Assembly: GCA_032718475.1 (NCBI GenBank) | Contig: JAUCBJ010001482.1 | Coordinates: forward strand, 1 to 64,000 | Length of the DNA: 64,000 nt | Direction of reading: 5' to 3' | Source: Nemertoderma westbladi | Lineage: Eukaryota; Animalia; Xenacoelomorpha | Part shown: positions 18,155 to 42,051 of the stretch, piece by piece | Numbering within the stretch: position 1 is the first letter of the stretch | How the letters are laid out: every line of letters starts with the position of its first letter | Program-made: the position numbers and the translations under genes | Notes under the pieces: model-generated | Database searches by the model: none | Told to the model about the DNA's origin: nothing | The model's input: the letters and a program-made list of their open reading frames with translations, nothing else

Positions 18155-19290
18155 TTAACCCTTTCCGGTTGGGGGACTAGATCTAGTCCACCTGGTAGTG
18201 TCCTAGGGCCTAGATCTAGTCCATTGTATCTTACTGAGTATTGCGGCTAACAGATTGCACTAGGACAGTAGTAGGGGCATACTATAGGTTTGCCGCACTG
18301 TTCTTGGTCATATCCAATTGCAGCCTACCAAGATTGGCGGGATTTTCAAACCAGAAACAGTGTTATTGTTTATTTTAATTACTTATTGTACACTACCGGT
18401 TGCCGGTCCACCAGTAGTACATAAATTTATTAGGTAGAAACTAATAAATGGGGCATTTTTATGGGGGAATGGCATCGAAATACCCCCAAAGACTACGGAC
18501 CCAGAGGAGGAGATATGGATATGATCCAGATGATGAATCCGATTCATATGAGTGCAGTGAAACTTCGACTTTGGATGATGAGGATGACTGGGAAACCGAT
18601 AATGACTCAGACTCAGAAGACGAAGGATTTGAAGAATTCATGTCAGTACTGCAGAATACGTGGGCCTTTGTTGGGGAAGAGAACCACTCGTGGGTTCCAG
18701 TTCGCGATTTTAAAACCTCGGATACTGGTTGGAAAGGTATATAGATACAACGGAATTTTAGGTAAAGGATTATGTCGATTTTTTTATCACTGATAAACTA
18801 ATGGATATAATTGTATCCAGTAGAAATGAACGAATAAACCTTATATATCTTCATGCAGCGCTGTACGTAAATCCTATTCATGGTTTGTCAAACTACTGTA
18901 GGCATTCACTACATACAGCGTCTGGTCCTAATCAGTTTTATAAGATATCGTGGTGATAAAAAACCACACGGTGGTAAAGATGGTAAACCAAAACGGATGA
19001 CGTTTTATGAATATAATCTAAAAGTCGTTGACCACCTTTCCCAGGTACAGGCGAGCCCACATAAACCAATACGTCAGCCGGTACCTCCCACCCCATCAAC
19101 GACTCCAATACACAAACTCGTAAAACAAGAACAAATTGGGAAAACCCAATGGCCACAGAAACGTTGTCGTGTCTGTAGTAGCAAACATATAGTGAAAAAA
19201 TCTCGTTATATCTGCCCGGTGTGCCCCGACAAACCTGGACTTTATCCTACATGTTTTAGTGAATATCCTCCTTATTTGTAAAATGTCGTG
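18155..19290 (+). mobile_element. Internally deleted piggyBac (PGBD4-like) transposon
   Basis: TTAA-CCCTTT left end at 18155-18164 and subterminal CTAGATCTAG palindromes. Acidic N-terminal ORF at 18448-18744. C-terminal Cys-rich domain QKRCRVC..SRYICPVCPDKPGL..CF at 18880-19281. DDD core and right TIR not found. Confidence 0.8.
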
Positions 19291-19415
19291 ATTTTATTTC
19301 AGTACTGTATATTTTTATATTTTTCAATCTGTCAATAATAATAAAGAAAGGGAGCCGACATTCAGTCAGAGCAACCAAATGGATGGCCAAGGAGACGGAC
19401 TGTCTGGATTGAGCT

Positions 19416-19952
19416 TGTTAGCTTATTCAATCCCGCCAACACCCCATAAAGTTATTAGCCGATAAGCAATATTGGGAGCCACGAGATTGGGTAATTAACC
19501 AACTCGCGCCATCCCAATAAGAATGGGAAGGAAGCACACAATAGAGGGTCAGGGGCCAAACCCCTAACCCAAGGAGAGCAGGTGGAGTGAACGGGAATAC
19601 TCCACGGGGCGCCAACAAGGGTATTAACCAATCAGAGGGGGGAATGGCATCGATTGAGTAGCAGTAAGGCCACCGTGCAATATAACCAATAACCTATTAA
19701 TCAGTGATTCAGTTATCTCAGTGCAGCAGTGCTAGCGTAGGGTACAGCCAATTAGTTTAGTTAGGGGATCACGGGACTTTAGTTACCGTATCCCGCCTTG
19801 TACACATTCACAATATATCTATATCTTATAACCTCTTATTATACACCGAACTTCAGAACTCAGTTATCTTTATTCCACTCTTATACACGGCGGGGACGCG
19901 TGGACTAAATACCACACCGGATAAATCGGGATCCCTCCTGGATCCCGTCACA
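19416..19952 (+). repeat. 5' LTR of BEL/Pao element 2
   Basis: Matches 32993-33529. Several CCAAT boxes, TATA-like AATATAA at ~19679, Inr-like TCAGTT at ~19709, terminal hairpin CGGGATCC..GGATCCCG. Confidence 0.97.
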
Positions 19953-20033
19953 GTAACTAAAACCGAGCTGCCGCCCTAGTTAAACTCAAAGAACTCCACC
20001 CTAGCTAGCCGAGCCATCAACCGAGCAGACGAG

Positions 20034-23000
20034 ATGAGTGAATCGGGCGAGACACCGACGCGGACCCCGGACGAAGATCAAACGATCCGCGAGGCCGCGA
20101 CTAAGCGATACAGGCCCACGACGCCGGAGCCATCGATAACGGGCGAACCGGAAGTCCAGGACGAGGAGGGCCTGGAACCCGAAGTCGAACCAAGAGAGAA
20201 AGAGAGCGAGATGGAGGGAGATGGAGACGAGTCGACACGAGAGGGAGAACGGCGCGCCGATGTCGCCGGCCAGCTACCGGCCGAGGGCGACGGGCGGCCC
20301 ACCGAAACGGCGACGGTGGGGCCGACGGTGCGACGCCGGACGCGAAGAGACGGAGGAGAGATCGGTACCGATGTCGCCGGCCAGCTACAGGCCGAGGGCG
20401 ACGGACGGCCCACCGGAACGGCGACGGTGGAGCCGCCGGTACGACGTCGAACCCGGAGGGACAGAGGAGAGGTCGGCGACGAGGACGTCGGGGTTTCTGA
20501 GCGACTTCGACGGGCCTACAACGCGACCCGGAAGTTGATAAACGACGCCAAGAAGGAAGGGGCGAAGGTAGACGAGGTGAGACTGAGAAAGCGACTAGGT
20601 GAGTCGGATAAACACTTAAATTACCTAATACGTTTTGAGCAGAGAAAACTGGCCGGGGAGAGAGCAAAAAGGATAGCCGGCGAACTGTTTGAACTATGGG
20701 AGTGTGGGAGTATGGGACCTAGCGTAGCGCCAGTGTACATAGGGCCATACTTGGTCGATGCCCGGGGAGTGAAACCAGTGGGTTGGAAGGGACCTGAGGA
20801 GGGCGAATCCGAGGCTAACACCGAGGATTCGGCCTCGTCGGTCGGAGAAAGCTCCGAAAAGGGGGAGAAAGCTAGTAGGTCGGGAAGGCGGGGGAAGTCC
20901 GTCGTAACCGATAAGTCTGCTACATCCTCCGCGAAAGAAAGAGCGGTGAGAAAAATAGGAGCCACATACCGTCTCAGCATGGCAGAGCAAGGTCAGAGAG
21001 AAATGAAGGAACGGCTAGAGGAGGGAAGAGTGCGGTTAGAGAGGGAAACGGTATTGCTTAGAGAAACCGGAGAAAGGGCCGAAAGGGCTTTGAAAAGCCT
21101 AAGGGAGTATGATGAGATAGAGGAAAGGGAGTGTAGGGAGCGTGAAGCGAGAGAGGAAAAGGAACGCGAGGAGCGTGAAGCGAGAGAGGAAAAGGAACGC
21201 GAGGAGCGTGAGGCGAGAATGGAAAAGGAACGCAAGGAACGTGAGGCGAGGAAGGAAAAGGAACGCAAGGAGCGTGAGGCGAGGAAGGAAGAGGAACGTA
21301 AAGAGCGTGGGGCGAGACGAAGGGAGAGTATTAAGAGTGCCGCAGACTCGGCCATCAAGGACACCCAGGAGCGTGAGGGGATAGTGGCAAAGGGTGAAAG
21401 GGAGCATAGGGAATTAAAGGAACGGCAGAGTGAGTATGCGAAAAATATAATTAGAGGGACGCACGAGTTGGAATACGTGCAAGTGGGACCGCCGTCTGAA
21501 AGAGGGGCCGGTTCGAGTATTTTTGAGGAGCCGAGGGCCGTAGACGTATTTGTTAATACTCCACTGACAGGGACCGCACGACAGACTCAAGACTGGTGCG
21601 ACCGTACGAGCGGGGGGGGTAATAATAATAATAATGGTACAGTAGACGTTGTTGATATTAATAGTACCGTATGGGATAACGCTAATCAAACCTTTATTAC
21701 AGGAAATACTTTGCCTGGTGGTAGTAATTTAAATTTAAATCAGAACAATCCCAGTGTTAATGTAGAAAATAATCCTAATATTGATGTAGTTACGCAAAAT
21801 AATTCAAATAATCAAAATAATAACTCGAATTCGGACCTACAAAATAACTTAAATAACGCAATTACACAGAATAATTCGAATAATTCAAATAATGATCTTA
21901 GCCCGAATTTACAAAATAATTCAGATAACGTAGTCGCGCAGAATAATACAAATGATTTTGTTTCAAATGAGCAAATTAATTCCGTTTCCAATATGGGTGC
22001 TATTAGTGTAGACACGTCGGGCCTACGTAACCAGGGAGCAGAGGGCCTGGTAGGCCACGTAGTTAGTAGACAGGGAGCAGAGGGCCTGGTAGGCCGCGTA
22101 GTTGGTAGGCAGGGAGCAGAGGGCCTGGAAGGCCACGCAATAGCAGAGGGAGAGGCGGGGGTGAACAGACCCGACCGTGGTAGGGTTGATGTGTCGACTA
22201 GAGGGGTATATAATAGTGGGGAGAGAGGTAGCGAAGTTAGATGTAGCGAGTGGGGGGGGGCTACGAGCACCCCACAACAGAAAGTTAGCGGCGAGAGGGG
22301 GGGGGCAGAGAGTGTCCCACAGCCGTCAGCGGACAATGCGAGGGCCGAACAAGGTAAACCGCAACAACCGGCGACGGAGAGTAATAGGGGGACTGCGAGT
22401 ATCCCCGGCGACGTGCGATCGAGCAGAAAAGGACAGGTTGACGTCGCGGGAGGGCAGACGGAGCGTCGAGCCCGATCAGAGGAGGAAAGAAGAACAGTGG
22501 GGTTTAACCGGGAGGTCGACGAGAGATCTCGTGAGCGGGAATATTCCACTGATAGGAGAAGAGAGGAGGACAGTAGTAGAAGTATCGCCGCAAACGATAG
22601 AAGAGCGAGGACGGACAGCGAGCCGTCGGTAGTCGAGATGAGAACGGAGAGTCAATGGGGTCGGACTCCGGGAGATTGCCGTCGCCCCGGAGGGATGCGA
22701 TCCGGTGAGACGCATTACACGCCGAGAGAGGGGTACGCGATGTACCGGTACGAAGATGAAAACAGTGGAGAGGGGGGTCGAAGAGAAACTTTCCGACGGA
22801 ATATACCTACCGATCGAGAATACGGTAGCCGCGGGGAGGATTATTCGAGAAGAATAAACTTCGATCCCGAACAACACATGCAGACTGTAGGGCATACTGT
22901 AGGTCTTACTGCACATACCGTAGGCCATACTGAGAGAGGCAATGTAGGCGATAGGATAGCGCGGACAACGGGATTAAACCCGGAAGTCGCGGAATACATA

Positions 23001-23246
23001 CCGGCGAGTAGGCCAGAAGCTGATAGGCCTATACCGGTACCAGCACAGCAGTATGACTACAGCATGCAGGGACATAACATATACCCAGGGGAGGGGGGAA
23101 TTATTGCGGATAGGTGTATGGGCCCCAACATATTAACATCAACCCCAGTACCAGACATACCGGTGGGGGGGGGGGACAGGGTGACATTCCCCCATCACAA
23201 TATCAACAATATACCCCGACAGGAACAAGAACAACGAGACCCCTAG
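20034..23246 (+). CDS. BEL ORF1: long low-complexity N-terminal gag extension (E/R coiled-coil repeats, Asn-rich tract)
   Basis: 1070-aa ORF directly after the leader. EREAREEKER repeats and an N/Q-rich segment. Overlaps ORF2 across a G11 run. Confidence 0.8.
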   Translation: MSESGETPTRTPDEDQTIREAATKRYRPTTPEPSITGEPEVQDEEGLEPEVEPREKESEMEGDGDESTREGERRADVAGQLPAEGDGRPTETATVGPTVRRRTRRDGGEIGTDVAGQLQAEGDGRPTGTATVEPPVRRRTRRDRGEVGDEDVGVSERLRRAYNATRKLINDAKKEGAKVDEVRLRKRLGESDKHLNYLIRFEQRKLAGERAKRIAGELFELWECGSMGPSVAPVYIGPYLVDARGVKPVGWKGPEEGESEANTEDSASSVGESSEKGEKASRSGRRGKSVVTDKSATSSAKERAVRKIGATYRLSMAEQGQREMKERLEEGRVRLERETVLLRETGERAERALKSLREYDEIEERECREREAREEKEREEREAREEKEREEREARMEKERKEREARKEKERKEREARKEEERKERGARRRESIKSAADSAIKDTQEREGIVAKGEREHRELKERQSEYAKNIIRGTHELEYVQVGPPSERGAGSSIFEEPRAVDVFVNTPLTGTARQTQDWCDRTSGGGNNNNNGTVDVVDINSTVWDNANQTFITGNTLPGGSNLNLNQNNPSVNVENNPNIDVVTQNNSNNQNNNSNSDLQNNLNNAITQNNSNNSNNDLSPNLQNNSDNVVAQNNTNDFVSNEQINSVSNMGAISVDTSGLRNQGAEGLVGHVVSRQGAEGLVGRVVGRQGAEGLEGHAIAEGEAGVNRPDRGRVDVSTRGVYNSGERGSEVRCSEWGGATSTPQQKVSGERGGAESVPQPSADNARAEQGKPQQPATESNRGTASIPGDVRSSRKGQVDVAGGQTERRARSEEERRTVGFNREVDERSREREYSTDRRREEDSSRSIAANDRRARTDSEPSVVEMRTESQWGRTPGDCRRPGGMRSGETHYTPREGYAMYRYEDENSGEGGRRETFRRNIPTDREYGSRGEDYSRRINFDPEQHMQTVGHTVGLTAHTVGHTERGNVGDRIARTTGLNPEVAEYIPASRPEADRPIPVPAQQYDYSMQGHNIYPGEGGIIADRCMGPNILTSTPVPDIPVGGGDRVTFPHHNINNIPRQEQEQRDP

Positions 23247-26200
23247 ATGAAAACAGGTCGTGTGATACAGACATATGGAGGGGGCCGCTACCCCCGATGA
23301 CATATCCGAGTCAGAGAAGATCAAGAAATAGGACGGACGAACCGCACCAGACAAGGGAAACTATACAGCACCCGTCGAATCCATTAGAAGCGCAGGCAAT
23401 GGGGATGGCCACGTTGATCGATGCGTTGAAAACGAGGATCGAATTACCACCCGTGGAACCGTTCAAATTCGATGGGAGTAGGCCGGAAGAATACTTACAG
23501 TTTCGGCGAATGTATAGTAACGAAATACTAACAAAAAACTTGACGCAGGCGGAGTGCCTAAAGTATCTACAAGTGTACACGGGAGGCCCAGCATACGATA
23601 TCGTGAGGCAATACCAAGGAATAGAGGGCGGCTTCACGACAGCATGGCGGGCACTGGATAGGGAATACGGGCACCCGGCCAAGATCATCAGGCAAACGCT
23701 AAGAGGCATAACATCGGGTGGCCTACAGGATAATCCCGTTAGCATTAAGACGTTTGCTAACAAAGTCGAGAAGGCACTGATCGTGCTGAAGACGCTAGAC
23801 GCGCCATACGAGCTCAACGCGTCCAATAACATCACCACGATAGCGCAGGCACTACCGAGCTGGCTGCGCAACAAATGGAGGAAGATCGCTTTCTCCACCA
23901 GAGATAAGAAGGGTGCGGAACCAGGTTTAGAAGAAATGTCAAACTTCTTAAATTACGAGGCTGAACTAATAACGGACCCAGTTTATAGTGAAGATAGCCT
24001 GGGAAAGGGACCAAAGACAGATCATTACAGGCCCAAACCAGAGCACAATACATCGAACGCGTTACCGAGACTCAGGCAATCATTGCCATATGCAGCGACG
24101 CAGGGGACTGCAAGTCCAAAGACAAGCGAAGATAAGACAACATCAAGGGACGGACAGGGGAACAACAACAACATGAAAAAACATAACCCCAGTACGTCCA
24201 GTAGGTCAAACCCAGTCAATAAGAATAGTAGGGACTTTGGTACGAATATAACTGCGATACGCAATGCATTATATAAAGAGGGCTACGACCCAAAGAGCAA
24301 ATGCCAGTTACACGCAAATGCGCTTCATAAAACCATGAACTGCAGGTACTGGCAGGCGCTACCGAGGCAAGACCAGATAGATTACGCGTCGAGCAATAAA
24401 ATCTGCTCGCGATGTGTGAAGAGTGGACACAAGGCCAGGGAATGCCAAGAGAAACCGGTCAAGTTTGGCCAAAGGAGAGGCCAGACGATGGCAACGAGCA
24501 CGGTAGGGGCGAATAAGAGAGGAACAGTGCTACTTGGAGTAGTACCAGTACGAGTGATCGGGGAAGGCAATCGATCAGTAACAACACTAATGCTGGTTGA
24601 TAGTGGAGCTGCCTTCACATTAGTTGAGGAATGGGTAGCCGAAGAAATAGGGTTGAGAACGAGGCCAAGCAGGATGGCGGTGACAACCATCTCTAGTAAA
24701 GATGAGATCCTAGAGATGAAGACAGGACGGTGCGCAATTGCAGCAGTGGCACCAGGATGCGACTATGGGGCAACCATCGACCCCATCCAAGTAATAGAGT
24801 CAATTAACATCAATGCCAGGCGGCCAACCAACATCGAGGTCGAGCAATACAAATTCCTGGATAACATTGACTTCTCAATCCCAAACGTGGACGTTAGGAA
24901 GGTATCCATCATAGTAGGCATGGACTGCCCAACGGCCCACGAGAGAATGCAAACGGTCTTCGGCGAAGACAAGCAGAGCGACCCGGTGGCCATATTAACG
25001 CCATTCGGGTGGACGCTGAGTGGTCCAATTAAGAGCAAGATACCATTCAGGATGTCGGAGACATCAGGATGCATGTTCGCGGGAACAATGCAGGAAATGG
25101 GTGACGAGGGAGCAGAGGAGCAGCTTAAAAGACTGCTCAGGCAGGACTGCGAGGGACTGAAAGAGACCGGAGTCGGGACCTCGGTAGAAGACAAGCAGGC
25201 TTTACAAAGTGTGGAGGAAACGATGACGTGTGATGAGGGGCGGTATACAATAGGAATGGTGTGGAAACTACCGAAGATACCGCTACCCGATAATAGAGGG
25301 ATGGTACTCACGAGACTCCGCAAGCTGAAACAAACACTACAACGGAGCCCCGAGAAGAACGAGTACATTCACAAAACCATAAAGAAGTACGTCGAGAAAG
25401 GATGGGCCGTGGAGTTACCGGTCGACGAACCGAACACGGACAGGACATACTACCTGCCACTCCACGTAGCCTTAGACCCAAAGAAAGGTAAACTTAGGAT
25501 GGTAGTCGATGCATCGGCAAAGACCGACGGAAAGTGCTTAAACGATTACCTACTAGAGGGCCCAAACATATACAATTCGGGCATAGAAGTACTACTTAGA
25601 TTTAGGAATGGGAAACACGCCTTCACGTGTGACATAGAAGGCATGTTCAACCAAGTCCGAGTAACAGAGGAAGATAGCGATAGTCAACGCTTCTTATGGT
25701 ATAACGGCGAAGAAGAACCGCCTATAATACCGGCATATAAGATGGTAGTACAAAACATGGGGGCCAAGTCGTCCTCATTTACGACGACTATGGCAGTGAG
25801 AGACACGGTAAAGGGGAAGGAGGATAGATATAGCAGTAGGGCCGTCGATATGATCAGACGCGGTTTCTACGTAGACGACGGCATGGAGTCTGGAAATACG
25901 GTTGAGGAGATACTGGAAACAGGGCGCGAGGTTCGCGACATCCTGAAAGGATCCGGCTTCAACCTGACCAAATTCCAATCCAGTTCAGAAGAATTTATCA
26001 GGGAAATAGAAGACAAGAAACCAGAATCGACCATGGACAACCCTACAACAGCCAAAGGACAGGACATGGCGATTAAGAGAGCGGAATCCCAGCAGAAGGC
26101 GCTGGGAATCGTGTGGGATAGAAAAACAGACGAACTGAAGTATCAGCTGAGCCAGGAGGGCGCAGACACCCATACGAAGAGGGGATACGTATCGTATATA

Positions 26201-28507
26201 GCAAGGATATACGATCCCCTAGGCCTAGCATCCCCATTACTAGTCACGGGGAAACAGATACTCAAGAGAGTATATAAGTTGAAGGATGTGTGGGACGTAG
26301 AGGTACCAGAAGACATTAAGAAACAGTGGAGCAAATGGACAGGAGACTTGGAGAGGATGGGAACATACAACATGCCGCGAGTGTATTTCCCGGACGGGAA
26401 CATGACGAATCTGGACCTACATATGTTCTCCGACGCGTCGTTAGAGGCATACGGAGCGGCACTCTATTTAGTACAACGAGAGGGGCCTCACAAGCCCAGA
26501 CTAGCCTTTAGCAAAGCTAAGTCAACGCCGCCAGATTCAGCATCTGTTCCCAAGTTAGAATTGACAGCCGCGAGACTAGGAGTTAGAGCCACAGCCTACC
26601 TAGTGGATACAATTCCCAACATAGTGGAGACACACTACTGGACGGACTCCATGGTAGTGCTTGGTTGGCTACACAACGAAAAGACGAGGTACCCGATATT
26701 CGTCGCGAATAGAGTGGACGAAATAAGGGCGAGCACAGAACTGGAAAGGTGGCACTACTGCCCAACAGACGAGAACCCAGCGGACTTGCTGTCGAGGGGC
26801 GTGGAACGCCACACTTTCTTAAAGAAAGAAGTATTGTGGCAACACGGGCCACAATTTCTGAGCGATAGGGAGGCCTGGCCGCCGATGAGGAAGGTGGACC
26901 CGGGCTCGGAAGTAGTATCAGAAGGAGAAGAAGGAGATTCAGAGGGAGAAGAGATATACTCCCAGATGGTGAGGGAGATCAGGGACGTGCAACCAGGAAG
27001 GGATCTGTGCGATAACCCGACGGATAAACTCCTCAGCTACAGTTCTAGTTGGTATAAGACCAAGAAACTAGTGGCGTACTGGAGAGCCTTTGGGAATTTC
27101 CTTGCGGGAGTCGGCAAGGACAAGAAGACCAGGACAACCATAGATCTGGAAGGAGCGGCCAAGGCAGTGATCCGCTATGAACAACGCAAGAACTACGGCG
27201 ACGAGGTGGAACGTGTCGGTAACCAACAACATCTCCGACGGGATAGCGAGTTGATCACGCTGTCGCCACAACTCAACGAGGAAGGGATTCTAGTAATGAA
27301 TTCTAGGGTGGGATATAACAACAGTATAGTCGTGCCACCGAAACCCATCATCATTCCAACAGGATCGCCTATAGTCCACCAGATCATATGGGACTCCCAC
27401 AAATCGATACTGCATGGGGGCACCAACCGAACCCTCACAGAGATAAGGAGGACCTATTGGGTCAAACAATTAAGGAAGAAGGTTAAAGCGGTAGTTGGGC
27501 AGTGTCAGACCTGCCGACGAGCGAAGAAGGAGCGAGCCGTACAGGAGATGGCGCCACTACCGGCGAGTAGGGTAAGACAGCACGACCCGCCATTTACGCA
27601 TTGCGGTGTGGACATGTTCGGGCCGATAAAGATCAAGGTGATGCGACACACGGAGAAACGCTACGGTATTATCTTCGTATGCAACAATACGCGGGCGGTA
27701 GGGATAGAACTCGCCCAAGATGCAACCGCATCAGCATTCATTAACGCCTTAGAAAGGTTTAGGGACCGCAAAGGTGGGACGATCGCAGTGATATACAGCG
27801 ACAACGGCACCAACTTTGTGGGCGCAGAGAGTGAGATGGCAGAGGCCTTAGACATCTTGGAGGGAGAAGAAGTCAGGGCGGCCATGAGAAGACGACAAGT
27901 GAAGTGGGAGAGACGGACGCCGTATGCACCACATACACTTGGATGCGTCGAAAGACTGGTGGGCAGTTCGAAACGTCTAATGACAAAGCTGATGAACACC
28001 CACATGGTCACTGAAGACGTCTTACGGACAGTACTTGCAAAGTGCGAGGGGATCATTAATAGCAGACCGCTATACCCGGAGAATGATGACCCTGAGTCAT
28101 TAGACGTGTTGACGCCTAGCCATTTCCTGATGGAAAGGCCAGCGACCATAGATATGCGGGGTGTAGACCCAGATGATATACACTCCCGCCAAAGTTGGAA
28201 AGTAGCTAAAGCGATTAGCGCAGAGTATTGGAGGAGGTGGGTAGAAGAATACCTACCCACACTCCATAAGCGAAGCAAGTGGAGGAAGCCAAACAGGGAG
28301 TTGAGAGAGGGAGATCTCGTAATCGTCACGGATGATACTATCATCAACAACCAATGGCGGTTGGCGAGAGTTGTAGGCACCTACTCAGACGAGGACGGAA
28401 GAGTCCGTTCGGTAGAAGTGCGGATAGGTGGAAAGATAGGTGCGAAAGACAGAAAAACCTACAGGAGAGCAGTAGGTAAATGCTGTCTTCTAGAAGGGGC
28501 ACCTTAA
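23114..28507 (+). CDS. pol: BEL gag-pol polyprotein (DUF1759 gag, knuckles, protease, RT, RNase H, integrase)
   Basis: Motifs PFKFDGS, CSRCVKSGHKAREC, LVDSGA, YLPLH, CDIEGMFNQV, FYVDD, IYDPLG, FSDAS, WTDS, ENPADLLSRG, H-H-C-C, GVDMFGP, SDNGTNF, VERLVG and LTPSHFL. Confidence 0.97.
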   Translation: MYGPQHININPSTRHTGGGGGQGDIPPSQYQQYTPTGTRTTRPLDENRSCDTDIWRGPLPPMTYPSQRRSRNRTDEPHQTRETIQHPSNPLEAQAMGMATLIDALKTRIELPPVEPFKFDGSRPEEYLQFRRMYSNEILTKNLTQAECLKYLQVYTGGPAYDIVRQYQGIEGGFTTAWRALDREYGHPAKIIRQTLRGITSGGLQDNPVSIKTFANKVEKALIVLKTLDAPYELNASNNITTIAQALPSWLRNKWRKIAFSTRDKKGAEPGLEEMSNFLNYEAELITDPVYSEDSLGKGPKTDHYRPKPEHNTSNALPRLRQSLPYAATQGTASPKTSEDKTTSRDGQGNNNNMKKHNPSTSSRSNPVNKNSRDFGTNITAIRNALYKEGYDPKSKCQLHANALHKTMNCRYWQALPRQDQIDYASSNKICSRCVKSGHKARECQEKPVKFGQRRGQTMATSTVGANKRGTVLLGVVPVRVIGEGNRSVTTLMLVDSGAAFTLVEEWVAEEIGLRTRPSRMAVTTISSKDEILEMKTGRCAIAAVAPGCDYGATIDPIQVIESININARRPTNIEVEQYKFLDNIDFSIPNVDVRKVSIIVGMDCPTAHERMQTVFGEDKQSDPVAILTPFGWTLSGPIKSKIPFRMSETSGCMFAGTMQEMGDEGAEEQLKRLLRQDCEGLKETGVGTSVEDKQALQSVEETMTCDEGRYTIGMVWKLPKIPLPDNRGMVLTRLRKLKQTLQRSPEKNEYIHKTIKKYVEKGWAVELPVDEPNTDRTYYLPLHVALDPKKGKLRMVVDASAKTDGKCLNDYLLEGPNIYNSGIEVLLRFRNGKHAFTCDIEGMFNQVRVTEEDSDSQRFLWYNGEEEPPIIPAYKMVVQNMGAKSSSFTTTMAVRDTVKGKEDRYSSRAVDMIRRGFYVDDGMESGNTVEEILETGREVRDILKGSGFNLTKFQSSSEEFIREIEDKKPESTMDNPTTAKGQDMAIKRAESQQKALGIVWDRKTDELKYQLSQEGADTHTKRGYVSYIARIYDPLGLASPLLVTGKQILKRVYKLKDVWDVEVPEDIKKQWSKWTGDLERMGTYNMPRVYFPDGNMTNLDLHMFSDASLEAYGAALYLVQREGPHKPRLAFSKAKSTPPDSASVPKLELTAARLGVRATAYLVDTIPNIVETHYWTDSMVVLGWLHNEKTRYPIFVANRVDEIRASTELERWHYCPTDENPADLLSRGVERHTFLKKEVLWQHGPQFLSDREAWPPMRKVDPGSEVVSEGEEGDSEGEEIYSQMVREIRDVQPGRDLCDNPTDKLLSYSSSWYKTKKLVAYWRAFGNFLAGVGKDKKTRTTIDLEGAAKAVIRYEQRKNYGDEVERVGNQQHLRRDSELITLSPQLNEEGILVMNSRVGYNNSIVVPPKPIIIPTGSPIVHQIIWDSHKSILHGGTNRTLTEIRRTYWVKQLRKKVKAVVGQCQTCRRAKKERAVQEMAPLPASRVRQHDPPFTHCGVDMFGPIKIKVMRHTEKRYGIIFVCNNTRAVGIELAQDATASAFINALERFRDRKGGTIAVIYSDNGTNFVGAESEMAEALDILEGEEVRAAMRRRQVKWERRTPYAPHTLGCVERLVGSSKRLMTKLMNTHMVTEDVLRTVLAKCEGIINSRPLYPENDDPESLDVLTPSHFLMERPATIDMRGVDPDDIHSRQSWKVAKAISAEYWRRWVEEYLPTLHKRSKWRKPNRELREGDLVIVTDDTIINNQWRLARVVGTYSDEDGRVRSVEVRIGGKIGAKDRKTYRRAVGKCCLLEGAP

Positions 28508-28614
28508 ATTAGAGTTAGTGTGAAGTTTAGTCGTCCAAGTTTTGGACTGAGGGGGGTGGGATTGAGGGCGAGACGCCCTTCCCACACAAATAAAAATAAA
28601 ATAAAATAAAAATA

Positions 28615-29250
28615 ATAGTTAGAGAGTCAGTAGGCACGTAGTACCTAGAGTTAGTTAGTTAGTAGGTACGTAGTACCTAGAGTTAGTTAGTTAGTAGGTA
28701 CGTAGTACCTAGAGTTAGTTAGTTAGTAGGTACGTAGTACCTAGAGTTAGAGAGTTAGTAGGTACGTAGTACCTAGAGTTAGTTAATTAGTAGGTACGTA
28801 GTACCTAGAGTTAGAGTTAGAGGGTACGTAGTACCAATAGTTAGTTAGAGTTAGAGGGTACGTAGTACCGATAGTTAGAGAGCTAGTAGGTACGTAGTAC
28901 CTAGTTAGAGTTAGAGTTAGAGGGTACGTAATGCCTAGTTAGAGTTAGAGTTAGAGGGTAGGTAGTACCGATAGAGTTAGAGTTAGTAGGTACGTAGTAC
29001 CTAGTTAGAGTTAGAGTTAGAGGGTACGTAATGCCTAGTTAGAGTTAGAGTTAGAGGGTAGGTAGTACCGATAGAGTTAGAGTTAGTAGGTACGTAGTAC
29101 CTAGTTAGAGTTAGAGTTAGAGGGTACGTAATGCCTAGTTAGAGTTAGAGTTAGAGGGTAGGTAGTACCGATAGAGTTAGAGTTAGTAGGTACGTAGTAC
29201 CTAGTTAGAGTTAGAGTTAGAGGGTACGTAGTACCATTAGTTAGAGAGAG
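28615..29250 (+). repeat. Tandem array inside the BEL element between pol and ORF3
   Basis: ~32-bp units (TAGAGTTAGTTAGTTAGTAGGTACGTAGTACC) grading into a ~99-bp higher-order repeat. Confidence 0.92.
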
Positions 29251-29744
29251 AGAGTAAGAGGTAAAAGGGGTAAAATAGGATATAGATATTAGTTAGCAGT
29301 AAGTAGAGTTAGTAGCGAGAGGGGGGCATATGAGTACAGCTGGATAAATCGTGTGGCCACACGACGCATACTGCTGTGCTGCATAGGCCCACAGAGTAGG
29401 CCAGAATATGGATCAGAGAATAGAATAAATCCATAGGCAGTAGTAAGTAGTAGGACAGTAGAATCAAAGCAAAATAAATAAATAAATAGAATAGGGCTAA
29501 AATCGGAAAATAGTGGTAACACAAGGAAAGTCGTTCTAGAACATAATAAAAGTAACGGACGGAAATCGTAAATTAGGCTGATTTACTAGCTCCGAAATTA
29601 ATTAGATTAAATTAAGCTTGAAAGGCGCAGTTAAGTAGAAAAGTAGGCCATTATCGAACTGTAGGAAACATCTCAATACATCACTCATCTGTATTGCGCC
29701 TTGGTAAGGCACCACCCTGCAGGTGAGCGAGTGTAGTGTTCGGA

Positions 29745-32279
29745 ATGGCGAGTAAGCTGATCAGGAAGAGAAAGGCGGAGTCAGGAGGAAAAGAAATATT
29801 GGTGGATTTCACCGAAAGACACCCGGAGGAGAAGACGAGAGGATACTACGAGAGGTTGGAAAGGGGTCACGCGGCACGAGCGCTGCAGGATCACTTCCGG
29901 GAGGCGCACGAACAGCGGTTGGTCGGGACCTACGGGACGCCGTCGCTGGATAACGCGATCTTCCAACACTTCCACTACGTGGTGAAAGGAGACGAGACGA
30001 AGTTCGGGATTCCGAAGTATCCGAGGGAATCGCCGAGGAAGGACTGGAAAAGATTCATAGAGTCCGTCAACAGAGGAGGATATATGATCCTAGATGACGA
30101 GGGAACCGTGGAAGACGAAGCGGGTTCGAGACGAGGAACGGCAGGGTCGGCCAGGACCATACTCTTGCATTTGGCAGCGCCAAATGGGGACATCTTCTTA
30201 TTCGACCTAGGGACGTATGGGAAGAAGGACGGGCCGAAATTAGACCGACTGCCGAAAGCGGTACAGGTCTTAGTAAGAGAGAAGTCGACGACGAAAGTGG
30301 GATCGGCGATTCGCGAGGACGCGGAGAGGATCATCGGTCCGGACGCCACCAACCTCCTGGATATGCAGAAAGTCTTTATGGCTATGACGGCACCGGATGG
30401 ATTGGGGGTGGTCGAGAACTCAGGCCAATGCGGGGCGGTGGCGATGGGCCAATTATTGTGGCTCGTATGCCACAAACCAATGGATTGGGGGAAGTTTAGG
30501 GAAGAATACGGAGCAGAACTAGCGAACTCGCTGAAGTGGAGAGCGAGACCGGGAAAGCAGGAGGTAAATCAGTTTCGCAGAGGAGCGATAAAGGTATATC
30601 AGAAGCGATATATCCTGCAGGAGGACTGGATGATGATAAGTTTACTTAACTTATTCATGACCATAGTTATCGAAAGAGAACCGGGGGCATTTCTGTTATC
30701 GGGATCACCCCTAAGCTACAGGAGAGCCTTTAAGACGGCCTTTGACGGTCTGGTAGACCACCCGGGGCTGAAGGGCGAGTCGGTGTACTACAACAGCCGA
30801 CATCTGGTAGATGGGGAGACGGACACACCGTATCAGAGATGGGAGCAGCTAGAGATGGATAGACGGGAAGCAAAGCGACTGGAAGAAGTCGGTAGACGGG
30901 AGAGGATAGAAGCAGAGGAGAGGGAAGAGGAGGCCAGGGCACAGAGTTACGGCTTCGAGGAACAGGCGGGCCTAGACGAACTTCATTGGACTTCGTCGGG
31001 GAGTTCGGGGGAGTCTCTAGGGCGAGAATTGGGATGGACGGTGGGATCGCCGAAACAGTCGACGTCGGGGTTGCAAACGACGCCCATACCAGCGGGCGCC
31101 GAGGGCGACCAACCGCCAAGGAAGTTAAGGGAGCTAGAGGGATGGAGAGCTACGGGCGAGAGCCAAGGCGGGAAGGGACATAGTGGATCCACCGGGATAC
31201 CGGGATTGGAGACACTACCAGAAGAGGAGGACGACGACGACGAGTTCGGAGAGATACCGCCCATCGAGAGGATAGGCCACTCGGACACGGACTGGGTTGG
31301 CGGAAGGGTGGTGACGGCCAGTGGGGCGAGGGCCTTCTGGAACAGATCCGGCAAGCGGACCTGGGTGCACGAGGGGCCGGCGATGGATTTCGCGGAGAGC
31401 ACCATCAGGTTGGGCGAGCAACCGGGGACGGCACCACGGATAGTATTCGGGGAGACGATGCCCGAGAGGGGCGGAGAGATCGACGTAAACAGGGAGAGCA
31501 ACGTGGAGAAGTTTGCCTACCAACGACTCCATAGACCGCGGAGATCGCTTGGGACGAAGGACGAGGTGGGACGCGAGACATTGGTACTCGGCTGCGACTA
31601 CTGTGGGAGACAGACCCATCGGGAAAGCAGCTGCCTATACCGGTTCCAACGGGGAACCTTTTGTCTCTATTGTAGAGAACCAAGTCACAGGATGGGGGCG
31701 TGTCCACGGTTGCATTACCGATGTCCAAAGTGCCACTTTCGGGGGCACTACGGACGCGAGTGCGACTGGATGAGCGACGAGGAGAAGTTCACGAGGTTCG
31801 AGGAGTGGGCCGACGTGGGGGCCATGACGTGCCAGCGCATGAAGGCCCAAGAGTTCAAGTGGGGTTTCTTCCTCATAAACCAGGAGACCCACATGGAAAT
31901 CATAAAGCGAAGGTTACCGTTTACCTATCAAGAGGTAGCTACGGCGGCATCGTTCGCCGGAGTTATGAACACGCAACGGTACCTGGACAGGTGGACACCA
32001 GAGAACCAGAGGGAATTTAGGGATTTCTTGGCGGAACACGTACCAAAGGCAATGAAGATGATCCTATGGGACGCCACACGAGGGAAACAACCAGGCCATT
32101 CTGAGGGGCCACCGGCGAAGCGGTATCGGGCTTTAATAACACCAGCGCCCAAGGAGCCGACGACCGGGATCAGCAAGGAAGTGGCAGCAAAGGTCCGGAA
32201 GCAGAAAGCGGATGATGCCAGAGGAGCGGTGATAACCAAGAAACGGGCCAGGGAGGAGGACGTGAGGAGGTACAAATAA
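29745..32279 (+). CDS. BEL ORF3: DEDDy/DnaQ-like 3'-5' exonuclease-like domain plus three CCHC zinc knuckles
   Basis: Exonuclease-like motifs ILDDEG (ExoI D-x-E), ILLHLA..IFLFDL, LPKAVQVLV..KVGSAIRED (ExoII), LLDMQ and YQKRYILQED (ExoIII-like). Knuckles CDYCGRQTHRESSC, CLYCREPSHRMGAC and CPKCHFRGHYGREC. First ATG at 29745. Confidence 0.8.
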   Translation: MASKLIRKRKAESGGKEILVDFTERHPEEKTRGYYERLERGHAARALQDHFREAHEQRLVGTYGTPSLDNAIFQHFHYVVKGDETKFGIPKYPRESPRKDWKRFIESVNRGGYMILDDEGTVEDEAGSRRGTAGSARTILLHLAAPNGDIFLFDLGTYGKKDGPKLDRLPKAVQVLVREKSTTKVGSAIREDAERIIGPDATNLLDMQKVFMAMTAPDGLGVVENSGQCGAVAMGQLLWLVCHKPMDWGKFREEYGAELANSLKWRARPGKQEVNQFRRGAIKVYQKRYILQEDWMMISLLNLFMTIVIEREPGAFLLSGSPLSYRRAFKTAFDGLVDHPGLKGESVYYNSRHLVDGETDTPYQRWEQLEMDRREAKRLEEVGRRERIEAEEREEEARAQSYGFEEQAGLDELHWTSSGSSGESLGRELGWTVGSPKQSTSGLQTTPIPAGAEGDQPPRKLRELEGWRATGESQGGKGHSGSTGIPGLETLPEEEDDDDEFGEIPPIERIGHSDTDWVGGRVVTASGARAFWNRSGKRTWVHEGPAMDFAESTIRLGEQPGTAPRIVFGETMPERGGEIDVNRESNVEKFAYQRLHRPRRSLGTKDEVGRETLVLGCDYCGRQTHRESSCLYRFQRGTFCLYCREPSHRMGACPRLHYRCPKCHFRGHYGRECDWMSDEEKFTRFEEWADVGAMTCQRMKAQEFKWGFFLINQETHMEIIKRRLPFTYQEVATAASFAGVMNTQRYLDRWTPENQREFRDFLAEHVPKAMKMILWDATRGKQPGHSEGPPAKRYRALITPAPKEPTTGISKEVAAKVRKQKADDARGAVITKKRAREEDVRRYK

Positions 32280-32992
32280 GTTCCCGGAGGCAAGGGAATG
32301 AGACTGAGACTGGGACGTGGTGCGCCTGGAAGGCGCCGCATGTAACGTACGAACTATTAAGTATAGATTTAATTAATGCAAATAACTATATAAGTGCAAT
32401 TCGTATGTACGTACGTAGTAATTAGCAGTAAAATACATACGTTTGGAGTAAGTACTATAGTCATGCAACCTTTCTCAATTAGCTACTGGGACTGGGGGAC
32501 AATTGACTATGGCACTATGGACGAGACAACTGACAATTTCACACTTCTTGAGTGCGGCGGCACGAGAGGGGGGGGAGGTTCGTCAGGAGAGATAAAATGG
32601 TCAAAGTGGACTTGAGAATCGGAATAAGAGTGATAGAGTGAAGTGCGGAGAGAGTGCGAACGCAATCCTAGTGTGGGGGGGGAGAATGAGAGGCTGAGTA
32701 AGGGACGAGGAGGTCCGGGGGTATGAGAGAGTTAGGGTGAGAGTGAAGGTGAGATAGGGCGAAAGTGTTGGGGAAACAAAAATCGCGTGAAGAGGTGAGC
32801 GCGATCGGCCCGACATGAGACGCCAGGCGTAAAGGGTAGCGTTATCATACCCAGAGGGAGCGGCCCGGAAAGCCGACTCCGAGAGAAAAGATTTCCACCC
32901 CACACCCGATACTAGATCGGGATCCAGCGGGATTGTAGCGCACTTTTTTGGTTGATGCTATCTTCTTACCGGGAAGATAGCATGGGGGGGAG

Positions 32993-33529
32993 TGTTAGCT
33001 TATTCAATCCCGCCAACACCCCATAAAGTTATTAGCCGATAAGCAATATTGGGAGCCACGAGATTGGGTAATTAACCAACTCGCGCCATCCCAATAAGAA
33101 TGGGAAGGAAGCACACAATAGAGGGTCAGGGGCCAAACCCCTAACCCAAGGAGAGCAGGTGGAGTGAACGGGAATACTCCACGGGGCGCCAACAAGGGTA
33201 TTAACCAATCAGAGGGGGGAATGGCATCGATTGAGTAGCAGTAAGGCCACCGTGCAATATAACCAATAACCTATTAATCAGTGATTCAGTTATCTCAGTG
33301 CAGCAGTGCTAGCGTAGGGTACAGCCAATTAGTTTAGTTAGGGGATCACGGGACTTTAGTTACCGTATCCCGCCTTGTACACATTCACAATATATCTATA
33401 TCTTATAACCTCTTATTATACACCGAACTTCAGAACTCAGTTATCTTTATTCCACTCTTATACACGGCGGGGACGCGTGGACTAAATACCACACCGGATA
33501 AATCGGGATCCCTCCTGGATCCCGTCACA
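32993..33529 (+). repeat. 3' LTR of BEL/Pao element 2
   Basis: Direct repeat of 19416-19952, preceded by the PPT and followed by the TSD. Confidence 0.97.
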
Positions 33530-34024
33530 GAGCTGAGTCGAGTTAAATCGCCGCCAAAACGACCAAGTCAATGCTTATTGGGATTGGGACTGAATATATC
33601 ATTGCAGAATTCGGTGAACAATACTAATATATAAATTTTGCACTACTGTCCTTTCCTTATACTGTATTTAAAACAATTATGAATTGTATACTAATAAGGC
33701 CAGCAACAATAATGTGCTGTATCCACGAATATCTATATTCTAGAAGAGAAGTAGAGAACACAAATAAACTATGCATATTTTATAAAGATACGATACGATA
33801 CGAATACAGTTTCGTGTAGTTTAGCCACGAGTTTAGTACTGGTATTATTTCGAATATATTTCATAGCTAAGTGAAAGAACAGTTTTCCAGTACTGCTATG
33901 ACAAACATTTGGTTTTGTGTCATAAAATTTCAATGAAACTTCTACTTATATATTTTTTCGGTAAATTGCTTCGCAAATTTGGCAAAGTTTTGGAACTTCG
34001 TTTAAAAATTTAGCATCTGATGAT

Positions 34025-34295: not shown

Positions 34296-34656
34296 AGAAC
34301 ATTTTTTAAAAAGTAAGAAAATCTATAGTGAAAAATGTATTATTTAAAATTTTTCTAGAATATAATATATTATTAGTTCTAGAGAAATACAAATATTTTT
34401 AAATAAAATAGCTAACATGTTCTATACACTATTAGTATTAGTATTGTTCACAGAATTCTAGAATGTTACATATATATACAGACAGATGGTATAAAATTGT
34501 ATTCTACAGGTCCATGTATTTGTGTAGGCTTTCCAGAAATTTTGCTATTTTTGCGTCGCTCTACCTATAATGGTATTAATAAATTATATTATTAAAGGTT
34601 GAGAATTTTTTTTATCGAAGCTCCAACTATAGTATTGGTAAACACAAAATTTATCC

Positions 34657-36052
34657 GGAACAGGCGGGTCAAGTCCCACCTGTGACCATGTTTTGAAGGG
34701 GAACAGGTCGGTCAAGTTCCACCTGTTACCATGTTTTGAAGGGGAACAGGCGGGTCAAGTCCCACCTATGACCATATTTTGAAGGGGAACAGGCCGGTCA
34801 AGTCCCACCTGTTACCATGTGTTGAAGGGGAACAGTCGGTGCAAGTCCCACCTGTTACCATGTTTTGAAGGGGAACAGGCCGGTCAAGTCCCACCTGTTA
34901 CCATGTTTTGAAGGGGAACAGGTCGGTCAAGTCCCACCTCTGACCATGTTTTGAAGGGGAACAGGCCGGTCAAGTCCCACCTGTGACCATGTTTTGAAGG
35001 GGAACAGGCCGGTCAAGTCCCACCTGTTACCATGTTTTGAAGGGGAACAGGCGGGTCAAGTCCCACCTGTGACCATTTTTGAAGGGGAAAAGGCCGGTCA
35101 AGTCCCACCTGTTACCATGTGTTGAAGGGGAACAGTCGGTGCAAGTCCCACCTGTTACCATGTTTTGAAGGGGAACAGGCCGGTCAAGTCCCACCTGTTA
35201 CCATGTTTTGAAGGGGAACAGGTCGGTCAAGTCCCACCTCTGACCATGTTTTGAAGGGGAACAGGCCGGTCAAGTCCCACCTGTGACCATGTTTTGAAGG
35301 GGAACAGGCCGGTCAAGTCCCACCTGTTACCATGTTTTGAAGGGGAACAGGCGGGTCAAGTCCCACCTGTGACCATTTTTGAAGGGGAAAAGGCCGGTCA
35401 AGTCCCACCTGTTACCATGTGTTGAATGGGAACGCGGGTCAAGTCCCACCTGTTACCATGTGTTGAAGGGGAACAGTCGGTGCAAGTCCCACCTGTTACC
35501 ATGTTTTGAAGGGGAACAGGCCGGTCAAGTCCCACCTGTTACCATGTTTTGAAGGGGAACAGGTCGGTCAAGTCCCACCTCTGACCATGTTTTGAAGGGG
35601 AACAGGCCGGTCAAGTCCCACCTGTGACCATGTTTTGAAGGGGAACAGGCCGGTCAAGTCCCACCTGTTACCATGTTTTGAAGGGGAACAGGCGGGTCAA
35701 GTCCCACCTGTGACCATGTTTGAAGGGGAAAAGGCCGGTCAAGTCCCACCTGTTACCATGTGTTGAATGGGAACGCGGGTCAAGTCCCACCTGTTACCAT
35801 ATTTTGAAGGGGAACAGGCCGGTCAAGTCCCACCTGTTACAATGTGTTGAAGGGGCACAGTCGGTGCAAATCCCACCTGTTACCATGTTTTGAAGGGGTA
35901 CAGACGGGTAAGTCCCACCTGTTACCATGTTTTGAAGGGGTACAGACGGGATAAGTCCCACCTGTTACCATGTTTTGAAGGGGTACAGACGGGACAAGTC
36001 CCATCCTGTTATCATGTTTTTATGGGGTACAGGCGGGACATGTCCCACCATG
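34657..36052. repeat. 43-bp minisatellite, ~32 copies
   Basis: Unit GAAGGGGAACAGGCCGGTCAAGTCCCACCTGTTACCATGTTTT, with a higher-order ~300-bp periodicity of variants. Confidence 0.95.
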
Positions 36053-36446
36053 TAACTTAATTTCAATGCTACAGTACTTTCTCCCTGATACCATGGTGGT
36101 TACACATTTCATTGAGTTTCATAGAATTGATATTGATATTATTGTTTTATTGTATTCGTTGTATGGACAATATAACAATGTAACAAATAATTGTATTATT
36201 TGTTGTCTTTGTACAGTATACAAATGATGAACTGATGGCGGACTCCATGTAGACCCTACTGTAGTTTTGCTTTATACCTACCCTATACAATTAAATCTAT
36301 TATAAAATGTATCCAAATTAATATTTTTGCGCCTGCCTACCCTGATATTCCCTCGCCTACCCAACTAAAATATCCTGGCTACGGGCCTGGTCGTGGCTCG
36401 CCCCACATTCTGTAGAGCGTTACAAGCTGCTGGATTAACGTTTATA

Positions 36447-39979: not shown

Positions 39980-42051
39980 ACAAGTCCCTAAAAGGTGCAA
40001 CCCTGCTCCATACCGCGGGGAATTCAAATGATTAAAGACATATAATTTGTTCTAGAAAGGGTGGCAGATCAGGGGCAGTATTCATAGCAGTTAGTATTAT
40101 TTACAGCTACTTAGTAACAGCTTTTAGTAAGAGCTGTAACTATGTTTAGTAAGAGCTATCTGTTACTAAAAACAACTGATTTTAGTAAGACCATTGACTT
40201 AACTTAGTTTCTACTAGCCCTTAAAAAATATCAGTATTCATAAACTGTTACTAAACTTAGTTCTAGCCCATTAGTACCAGTGCTGGTACTTTAACTTATG
40301 TTTATTAAAAAGCTTTCAGTTTCAACTTTAAGGTCGGTAGATATGCCCTGCATGTCTCTATGTTTACTGTTTTACTTGTACTGGTAGTCTACATTAAACC
40401 CATTAATTTTATTGGTCACTAAAACAATTCCTGTTTTCCAGTAAATTTTTTTCGTTATCAAATATATATTTCCTCCACTCAATTTAATTATCACTAAAAT
40501 ATATTTTTGAATCATCAAAAATAAATCTGTTACGGCCTGTTGTAATAAAATCCCTTCATTATTTAGGTTCGAATAACGTGGCACTGTAAGCTGCCCTTTC
40601 CCACATTTTAGCAATAATTTATAATTAATAGATTTTAGTGGAAACTTAATATTTTAGTGATTTCCTGTTAAAATTTTAGTGAAAAGTTTTCATTTTTAGT
40701 AAGGCGATAAATCAATTGGCTACCATTATCGAATACCAATATTTACAATCGGTAATAGAGAGGAAAATAATGAAGTGGGAACGTTACCGCTTTTTTATCT
40801 TGCGAAAGTTCGCGAATGGTAGAATTCTTTAGCGAAACACATTTTTCAACGGACGCGGACCGTTCGGGAGCAATCTCACCATTCAAGAATGTAAGCTGAA
40901 ATTTGGAAATTTAAGTCGGATATATGTTTAAAAAACAACAAGCTTTATGTCGTTACATTTGACAGTTTCTCTGCAACAACATATTTGCAATGAACACAGA
41001 ATGCTAGAAAAACAAGAGAGAGTATAATGTGGACAGAGTCGTCAGTGTGTCATGTATGAAGGCCAACATAGAATAATGTGCTGGCTAGCTGGCTGGCTTA
41101 ACCACTCAGCTTAGTTGTTCACGTGCTGCTCGAAGTCCCAGACTAGTTAACCAGTCAGCTTAGTTGTTCACGTGCTGCTCGAAGTCCCAGACTAGTTAAC
41201 CAGTCAGCTTAGTTGTTCACGTGCTGCTCGAAGTCCCAGACTAGTTAACCAGTCAGCTTAGTTGTTCACGTGCTGCTCGAAGTCCCAGACTAGTTAACCA
41301 GTCAGCTTAGTTGTTCACGTGCTGCTCGAAGCCCCAGACTAGTTAACCAGTCAGCTTAGTTGTTCACGTGCTCTCGAAGCCCCAGACTAGTTAACCAGTC
41401 AGCTTAGTTGTTCACGTGCTCTCGAAGCCCCAGACTAGTTAACCAGTCAGCTTAGTTGTTCACGTGCTGCTCGAAGTCCCAGACTAGTTAACCAGTCAGC
41501 TTAGTTGTTCACGTGCTGCTCGAAGTCCCAGACTAGTTAACCAGTCAGCTTAGTTGTTCACGTGCTGCTCGAAGTCCCAGACTAGTTAACCAGTCAGCTT
41601 AGTTGTTCACGTGCTGCTCGAAGTCCCAGACTAGTTAACCAGTCAGCTTAGTTGTTCACGTGCTGCTCGAAGTCCCAGACTAGTTAACCAGTCAGCTTAG
41701 TTGTTCACGTGCTGCTCGAAGCCCGAGACTAGTTAACCAGTCAGCTTAGTTGTTCACGTGCTGCTCGAAGTCCCTGAATAGTTAAAACAACAACAATAAC
41801 GGATGAGTGAGTTAAACCGATAAGAAACAATTTATTCTGATTCAATGAATTGATTACATTTAGTCTTACTGTCTTACTCTATTCATGTATTCAATGTTAA
41901 AACAGATTTGAATTTACCGCCAAAATATAGATAGCAGATCTGACCTGCCACCCTTTCCAGTACAAATTACATGTCTTTAATCATTTGAATTTCCCGCGCT
42001 ATGGACCACCTTTTAGGTGCTATGTGCATGTGGCACCTTTTAGTGACTTGT
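39980..42051. mobile_element. Mutator-like (MULE) non-autonomous element in PWWP2-like intron 2
   Basis: ~90-bp imperfect TIRs (ACAAGTC..AAAAGGTG..GAATTCAAATGATTAAAGACAT..AAAGGGTGGCAG). 10-bp TSD GTATTCTTAT at 39970-39979 and 42052-42061. Confidence 0.85.
41097..41785. repeat. 49-bp tandem repeat, ~14 copies, inside the MULE
   Basis: Unit CAGCTTAGTTGTTCACGTGCTGCTCGAAGTCCCAGACTAGTTAACCAGT. Confidence 0.95.

Follow-up and report, generated by a model that had tools for sequence, protein, structure and literature searches.

DEDDy-like exonuclease genes have been described as the third open reading frame (ORF3) of the Juno/Vesta and Athena/Terminon retroelements of bdelloid rotifers, in which the active-site motif reads DEED and activity has not been shown (Rodriguez et al. 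2017, PMC5408684). The extra genes described in BEL/Pao retrotransposons are env genes, as in roo and in mosquito elements with chuvirus-like glycoproteins (PMC3118150, PMC13524379). The combination of an exonuclease domain with CCHC (Cys-Cys-His-Cys) zinc fingers is represented by the trypanosome RNase D TbRND, which has four such fingers and trims the U-tails of guide RNAs, and whose architecture is called very unusual by its authors (PMC7797062). The locus presented here lies in a stretch of 64,000 nucleotides from Nemertoderma westbladi (GenBank assembly GCA_032718475.1, contig JAUCBJ010001482.1), hereafter the window. It is a BEL/Pao element spanning 19416-33529, whose third gene, for which the name ORF3 is used as well, combines a predicted DEDDy-like exonuclease domain with three CCHC zinc knuckles. 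An exonuclease as third gene is of a known kind; what is new is its occurrence in another superfamily of retrotransposons with long terminal repeats (LTRs), together with its fusion to knuckles.

Like the genes of rotifer Juno, Vesta and Athena (PMC5408684, PMC6431247), ORF3 is a third, non-env reading frame after pol, is RNase D-like and carries one Asp-to-Glu exchange. The rotifer precedent named in the initial annotation of the window is real. The rotifer elements, however, are gypsy-like and Penelope-like, whereas the present one is BEL/Pao; their motif is DEED, from which the D-E-D-E order found here departs; the term CCHC is absent from PMC5408684, which gives a Cys-His-Cys motif in two cases, in contrast to the CCHC fusion of ORF3; and the rotifer genes that were tested show no clear departure from neutrality, whereas the exonuclease domain of ORF3 is under purifying selection. 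No Juno, Vesta or Athena ORF surfaced among the matches of the ORF3 protein searches. The env-bearing BEL/Pao elements have the same type of gag-pol and an extra gene in the same position, but that gene encodes a membrane fusogen and ORF3 does not. The word exonuclease is absent from the main text of PMC3118150 and PMC13524379, no BEL/Pao exonuclease case appears in the excerpts of PMC6431247, PMC3601003 and PMC6338049, and the literature search as a whole, with subscription journals, Repbase and supplements outside its scope, found no BEL/Pao element with such a gene; unannotated examples may exist among the BEL/Pao sequences that accompany PMC3118150.

A DnaQ-type fold for amino acids 91-312 of ORF3 is very likely, judging from ESM-Atlas features and profile comparison, which support it independently, and from a multiple alignment. 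With ESM-Atlas features of amino acids 70-380 the best score was 0.95, to unnamed clusters, and 25 of the 30 matches belong to the PF01612 set. The top cluster of that set has a score of 0.93, and the family is carried by 34% of its members; chance rates of these scores are not calibrated for protein parts. The reference set for profile comparison comprised bacterial WRN-like and RNase D proteins, from 11 of which a hidden Markov model (HMM) was built. ORF3 scores above all of 1000 global and all of 1000 local shuffles with the WRN-like HMM, and the WRN-like profile retrieves WRN, Mut-7, EXD2 and Rrp6 from the PDB. Comparison of ORF3 with this profile by hhalign gave a probability of 85% and an E-value of 5.8e-6 over 67 columns. 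In local mode the ORF3 score was 39, a value reached by none of 150 shuffles (maximum 23) and by none of the controls, which were 41 segments of real ORFs in the window, the C-terminal part of ORF3 among them (maximum 21.5). An alignment of 44 rows, ORF3 and 43 bacterial WRN-like and RNase D-like sequences of 13-22% identity, is collinear across the whole domain. These results bear out the DnaQ/DEDDy-type domain proposed in the initial annotation, which had also located D-x-E at 30093-30101, KVG...D at 30294-30320, Y-x3-E-D at 30609-30626 and the knuckles at 31593-31763, all correctly.

In the alignment the columns of D117, E119, K184, Q286 and Y289 are invariant (44 of 44 rows), D192 stands on the ExoII Asp column (Asp in 42 of the 43 other rows), E293 stands on the ExoIII Asp column, where all 43 other sequences have Asp, and W295 falls on the following Trp column. 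The active-site codons are those at 30093 (D117), 30099 (E119), 30318 (D192), 30609 (Y289) and 30621 (E293). Compared with the canonical DEDDy pattern, ORF3 has the D-x-E of ExoI, the Asp of ExoII and the Tyr of ExoIII, but Glu instead of the ExoIII Asp, and the usual YAA reads YIL. The predicted active site is D-E-D-E-y, DEDDy-like though not canonical, with four carboxylates kept. The earlier suggestion of a catalytically altered decoy is weakened by this assignment, with E293 on the Asp column and a carboxylate at all four acidic positions, and we regard catalytic activity as probable. The literature search found no data on an Asp-to-Glu exchange at ExoIII in Klenow. WRN-exo, EXD2, Mut-7 (Nibbler), Exd1 and Egalitarian share with ORF3 the ExoII motif KVG-x-x-I-x-x-D, the Q-x-x-Y of the ExoIII helix and the fold, but ORF3 differs from this group by Glu at ExoIII. 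By BLASTP, WRARP matches E. coli RNase D, which suggested W265 as the conserved pre-ExoIII Trp; this assignment was discarded, as the alignment puts F277 beside that column.

AlphaFold run on the 44-row alignment gave a model with a predicted local distance difference test score (pLDDT) of 74 and a predicted template modelling score of 0.74. Foldseek matched this model to TbRND (7c4c) with an E-value of 3e-5, and comparison of the two structures by VIA gave a Z-score of 12.9 and a root-mean-square deviation of 3.6 over 183 aligned residues at 20% identity, tied with Exd1, Egalitarian and WRN. The model also matches Rrp6, EXD2, NrnC and giant-virus 3'-5' exonucleases, and its structural neighbours include Nibbler/Mut-7, Exd1 and RICE1. 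The structural scores do not separate subfamilies, being tied among small-RNA-pathway proteins, WRN, RNase D and NrnC.

The triple knuckle proposed in the initial annotation is present as three C-x2-C-x4-H-x4-C motifs, followed by a region of about 100 amino acids without a recognised fold and a basic tail. Their proposed likeness to Air1/2-ZCCHC7 found no support (ESM-Atlas rank 18, score 0.79); against TbRND the knuckles give a weak sequence match (E-value 0.41). In overall architecture TbRND (PDB 7C42, 7C45, 7C4C) resembles ORF3 in having an N-terminal DEDD exonuclease and C-terminal tandem CCHC motifs, and it provides the best Foldseek rows and the highest structural identity (20%) for the ORF3 model. 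TbRND has four fingers and a linker of 28 amino acids, whereas ORF3 has three knuckles and a linker of about 300; moreover, TbRND is a cellular mitochondrial enzyme with canonical DEDD, whereas ORF3 is element-borne with Glu at ExoIII. The likeness of the two architectures is probably convergent. The literature search found no precedent in BEL/Pao, but an exonuclease joined to CCHC motifs is known in trypanosome RNase D (PMC7797062). A weak match of the knuckle region within the window, at 15545-16130, is due solely to Gag knuckles of the Mag element nearby.

ORF3 was also correctly described as uninterrupted and as distinct from env. It contains no internal stop codon over its 844 amino acids and no transmembrane helix, with a highest 19-residue hydropathy of 1.32, and hence no anchor of the env kind; its N-terminus is charged. 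The strand bias of the gene is A/G-rich and T-poor, as in gag and pol. Searches for relatives in a set of 5.8 billion proteins (queries of amino acids 60-400, 71-380 and 600-790, in limited length ranges) found none, and the exonuclease region had no Pfam match even at E-values up to 10. A PDB sequence search with ORF3 returned nothing real. No ORF3-related locus was found in metagenome contigs, viral contigs or phages; in the viral contigs one stretch matching ORF3 was reported and no locus recovered. A plasmid search likewise gave no locus (3 matches at an E-value of 2). The single match of the full phmmer scan, to a tandem-repeat protein over 19 residues, was rejected as spurious.

The exonuclease domain is under purifying selection. 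Contigs of four sequencing runs from three samples (runs X1 and X3 are one sample) were aligned to 30060-30660, where 61 places vary, with no insertion or deletion among those listed. Synonymous changes account for 32 of the 40 listed differences (29 at third positions), against an expected fraction of 0.31 under the observed transition bias (p 3e-10), from which purifying selection follows; 35 of the 40 are transitions. A rough omega of 0.11 was obtained for the domain, with sites scored singly against this copy and not by a codon model. Four of the eight non-synonymous listed sites are private to this copy, nearly all contigs differing there, and the codons of D117, E119, D192, Y289 and E293 contain no listed variant. 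If all 21 unlisted sites were non-synonymous, the resulting 32 of 61 would still exceed the expectation (z about 3.5). In an element-wide contig comparison, whose sites overlap the 40-site set, 12 of 16 listed ORF3 sites were synonymous. The outcome that would have told against the original proposal, an ORF3 absent or degraded in related copies with dN/dS near 1, was thus not observed. It is very likely that the gene is selected for the benefit of the element.

The carrier is a BEL/Pao element with identical LTRs, a target-site duplication and an intact pol, as first reported (Table 1). The two LTRs do not differ at any of 537 positions, start with TG, end with CA and are flanked by a 5-bp duplication, GAGCT on both sides; the order Gag, protease, reverse transcriptase (RT), RNase H, integrase (IN) and the BEL/Pao-type domains agree with membership in the superfamily. 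The empty insertion site is present in run X2 as a contig joint from 19408 to 33533. The insertion-site sequence (19300-19415 and 33530-33600) is itself repeated, and contigs contain the empty site. Contigs lying on the element number 42,649 in run X1 and 19,416 in run X2, counts that reflect contig depth and not copy number, and they cover 30 of 30 bins including ORF3; the gene is thus shared by a highly repeated family and is no peculiarity of this copy. Part of ORF3 is present in five of the seven listed runs, and at least half of its sequence words in three. No RNA run appears among those listed with ORF3, which bears on its expression in neither direction; element cover is scattered and shallow in run X5, which we guess to be RNA. 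The family is still inserting, and this element, with its identical LTRs, was inserted recently. Another locus, L204, has a BEL-like pol of 30% identity that ends before any third gene and offers no usable LTR.

Table 1. Features of the BEL/Pao element and of its third gene, in window coordinates.
Feature	Position	Strand	Basis
Left target-site duplication GAGCT	19411..19415	.	LTR comparison
5' LTR, 537 bp, TG...CA, identical to 3' LTR	19416..19952	+	
LTR nt 363-371, fully complementary to the 9 nt that follow the LTR; predicted self-primer	19778..19786	+	
Primer-binding position, lacking a tRNA-type TGG	19953..19961	+	
ORF1, 1088 codons stop to stop, gag-like, low-complexity N-terminal part	19980..23246	+	
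ORF2: Gag core (DUF1759, CCHC), protease, RT (YVDD), RNase H (Peptidase_A17), integrase, DUF5641	23114..28507	+	
Array of tandem repeats with periods of 32-34 and 100 nt, length differing among copies	28585..29280	+	
ORF3, 844 aa, third gene in env position, without internal stop	29745..32279	+	
DnaQ/DEDDy-like 3'-5' exonuclease domain, aa 91-312	30015..30680	+	features, profile, alignment, model
Charged stretch and an acidic linker, the latter probably disordered, aa ~363-600	30831..31544	+	disorder inferred from composition
Three CCHC zinc knuckles, aa 617-630, 640-653, 660-673	31593..31763	+	
Polypurine tract adjoining the 3' LTR	32980..32992	+	
3' LTR, 537 bp	32993..33529	+	
Right target-site duplication GAGCT	33530..33534	.	

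The gag-like ORF1 has no Pfam match. In ORF2, Pfam places Peptidase_A17, DUF1759, DUF5641, Integrase_H2C2 and Asp_protease_2 above the cut-off and rve and RVT_1 below it, and the RT, RNase H and integrase motifs are intact. ORF1 and ORF2 lie in different frames and overlap around a run of 11 G at 23165-23175, so that this copy has no single gag-pol reading frame; the run may represent a sequencing error, slippage or a programmed shift. The spacer of 1.24 kb between pol and ORF3 contains the tandem array, which is rich in TTAGTTAG and GTACGTAGTAC and could serve as an internal promoter for ORF3. No GT(A/G)AG splice donor occurs in 19700-20300, and the acceptors before ORF3 are weak only.

The junction between LTR and leader is unusual in that the 5' LTR is followed by GTAACTAAA instead of TGG. 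The absence of TGG and the 9-bp complementarity to the LTR hint at self-priming, although a tRNA fragment may also act as primer at this junction. Self-priming is known from Tf1/sushi, Tcn1, TAR and Tj1 (PMC6317226, PMC4600332), in which the primer site is complementary to the element's own LTR and a stem-loop is predicted at the LTR end, an arrangement that the present element may share; these are chromovirus or copia elements whose primer is the 5' end of the transcript, whereas here the pairing comprises 9 bp and its LTR segment is found some 67 nt past the predicted start. The literature search found neither a self-priming BEL/Pao element nor an LTR retrotransposon gene dedicated to primer processing. 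The register is that needed for a minus-strand start, the 3' C of LTR nt 363-371 pairing with the first base after the LTR. Predicted pair probabilities at the 9-bp site are 0.73-0.97, the same pairing occurs in 3 of 300 shuffles, and a matching 9-mer at offset 0 occurs in 32 of 3000 shuffled LTRs (about 1%). Two further nested helices are predicted between LTR nt ~315-351 and the leader to about 20010, as is a terminal hairpin near the LTR end. The TATA-like AATATAA at 19679 and the Inr-like TCAGTT at 19709, which we take to be promoter motifs, predict a transcript start at about 19711. One contig each in runs X1 and X2 departs from the window sequence directly after the 9-mer (joint 19961 to 20051), a soft hint that the 9-mer is kept while the leader varies. 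No Rfam match was found in 19000-34000 and no tRNA gene in the 64-kb window. The neighbouring gypsy-type element, presumably Mag-like, has a normal TGG site and self-complementarity of at most 5 nt. A second, distant BEL/Pao element runs off the start of the window (5387-1, minus strand; 31% identical to ORF2 in an alignment of 451 columns). Its putative 5' LTR extends from 5387 to about 4880, the end being inferred, with no TGG after it; the 9-mer that follows is complementary to LTR nt 359-367, which 153 of 3000 shuffles equal for the LTR end so placed, and this element may share self-priming.

We propose that ORF3 is a 3'-end trimmer of RNA that serves replication of the element, with the predicted self-primer as its most plausible substrate. 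The domain would be active, since the carboxylates D117, E119, D192 and E293 as well as Y289 are kept. The knuckles would hold single-stranded RNA and pass its tail to the active site, a task that ZF1-2 perform in trypanosome RNase D. By folding back, the 5' region of the transcript would bring LTR nt 363-371 into pairing with the 9 nt that directly follow the LTR; RNase H would nick the RNA downstream, as it does in Tf1, or the nick would fall on a short LTR transcript; and ORF3 would remove the unpaired 3' tail and stall at the helix, leaving a 3'-OH exactly at the minus-strand start. A primer-trimming role gains circumstantial support from the self-complementary site, which had not been noticed in the initial annotation. 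That ORF3 acts on RNA seems somewhat more plausible than the contrary, whereas the self-primer as its substrate is rather doubtful. The statement as a whole, namely that ORF3 trims RNA 3' ends for the element and most likely does so to finish the predicted self-primer, is put forward tentatively, as a serious possibility that falls short of being probable. The broader view that this BEL/Pao lineage has given up tRNA primers to prime itself, and has in the DEDDy-CCHC exonuclease a primer-maturing enzyme of its own, is unlikely on present evidence.

Several observations weigh against this proposal. On the side of the enzyme, catalysis may suffer from Glu at ExoIII and from YIL, the input alignment of DEDDy proteins makes the structure model circular, and a single-sequence AlphaFold model reached a pLDDT of 34; the selection estimate rests on the 40 listed of 61 variable sites, with X1 and X3 as one sample. 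On the side of the RNA, 9 bp is one below the 10 bp required by the rule in PMC6317226, the 5' region taken as a whole is not predicted to fold more stably than its shuffles (z -1.07), the energy of the extended duplex is matched by 58 of 1000 shuffles, and LTR nt 363-371 lie downstream of the predicted start by about 67 nt and not at the 5' end as in Tf1 and Tj1. The similar junction in the second BEL element may mean that self-priming is a clade trait independent of ORF3. The Tf1 primer is reportedly produced by RNase H alone (Levin 1996, cited in PMC4600332).

A different target would be the host. ORF3 could be a counter-defence nuclease that over-trims or destroys precursors or guides of PIWI-interacting RNAs (piRNAs) or small interfering RNAs, or competes with a host trimmer; the silencing-suppressor role suggested in the initial annotation gained no support. 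Nibbler/Mut-7, Exd1 and RICE1 act in small-RNA pathways and are structural neighbours of ORF3, the element exists in very many variant copies and is still inserting, and a third gene separate from pol suits action outside the particle; yet the tie with WRN, RNase D and NrnC gives no preference for that subfamily, and mature piRNAs, which are 2'-O-methylated, resist such trimmers, so that we consider a counter-defence role fairly unlikely. Egalitarian and Exd1 stand in the top structural rows, including Egalitarian-BicD bound to I-factor RNA, and together with the changed ExoIII Asp and the charged linker and knuckles they would fit a nuclease-dead RNA adaptor of the Egalitarian/Exd1 kind, routing element RNA to the germ line or an assembly site in place of env. 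Conservation of the four acidic positions and of the Tyr, with no listed variant, would be unexpected for a long-dead site and makes such an adaptor distinctly unlikely.

The knuckles, which indicate single-stranded RNA, also speak against an editing function on DNA, either proofreading for RT or polishing of cDNA 3' ends before integration, although WRN and polymerase exonuclease domains have the same fold and the detecting profile is WRN-like. Since the gene is not fused to RT, and the many differences between copies show a strong excess of transitions (35 of 40 listed) like that of ordinary RT errors, DNA editing is improbable. A host gene that was captured not long ago and is retained neutrally would recall the rotifer genes, tested without clear departure from neutrality (PMC5408684), but is already largely refuted by the 32 synonymous sites of 40 listed, the strand bias shared with gag and pol and the lack of a close host relative in protein searches, and is highly improbable.

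Just outside the putative LTR of the second BEL element, at about 5450-5620 and 6150-6300 on the minus strand, lie exon-like stretches that by eye seem to encode leucine-rich repeats, and the element may sit in a host-gene intron. The gypsy-type element occupies 12246-16970 on the minus strand, with 164-bp LTRs that are 99.4% alike, the TGG site, Gag knuckles and a pol split over several frames. A non-LTR element ORF of 1035 codons with endonuclease and RT domains is found at 47510-50617 (minus strand). Satellite arrays with units of 43, 49 and 41 nt occur at 34535-36074, at 41000-41909 and from 44617 onward, and inverted-repeat pairs at 36444/38193 and 40004/42008. At 59190-60002 on the plus strand there is an ORF of 270 codons with several cysteines, a hydrophobic C-terminus and no Pfam match.

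Accessory genes reveal what limits the spread of retrotransposons. The DEDDy third genes of rotifers came in 2017 without evidence of selection or function, whereas ORF3, judged by its variants, is clearly selected. Its presence in a different superfamily, in a highly repeated family of recent activity, under purifying selection and joined to RNA-binding knuckles suggests that the capture of a 3'-end trimmer is a repeated and useful strategy. ORF3 offers a soluble protein and two candidate substrates, its own predicted self-primer or host small RNAs. If the proposal holds, the element would be a self-primed BEL/Pao retrotransposon with a gene dedicated to primer processing, and thus represent a new priming route; should host small RNAs be the substrate instead, ORF3 would be an element-encoded nuclease against RNA silencing.

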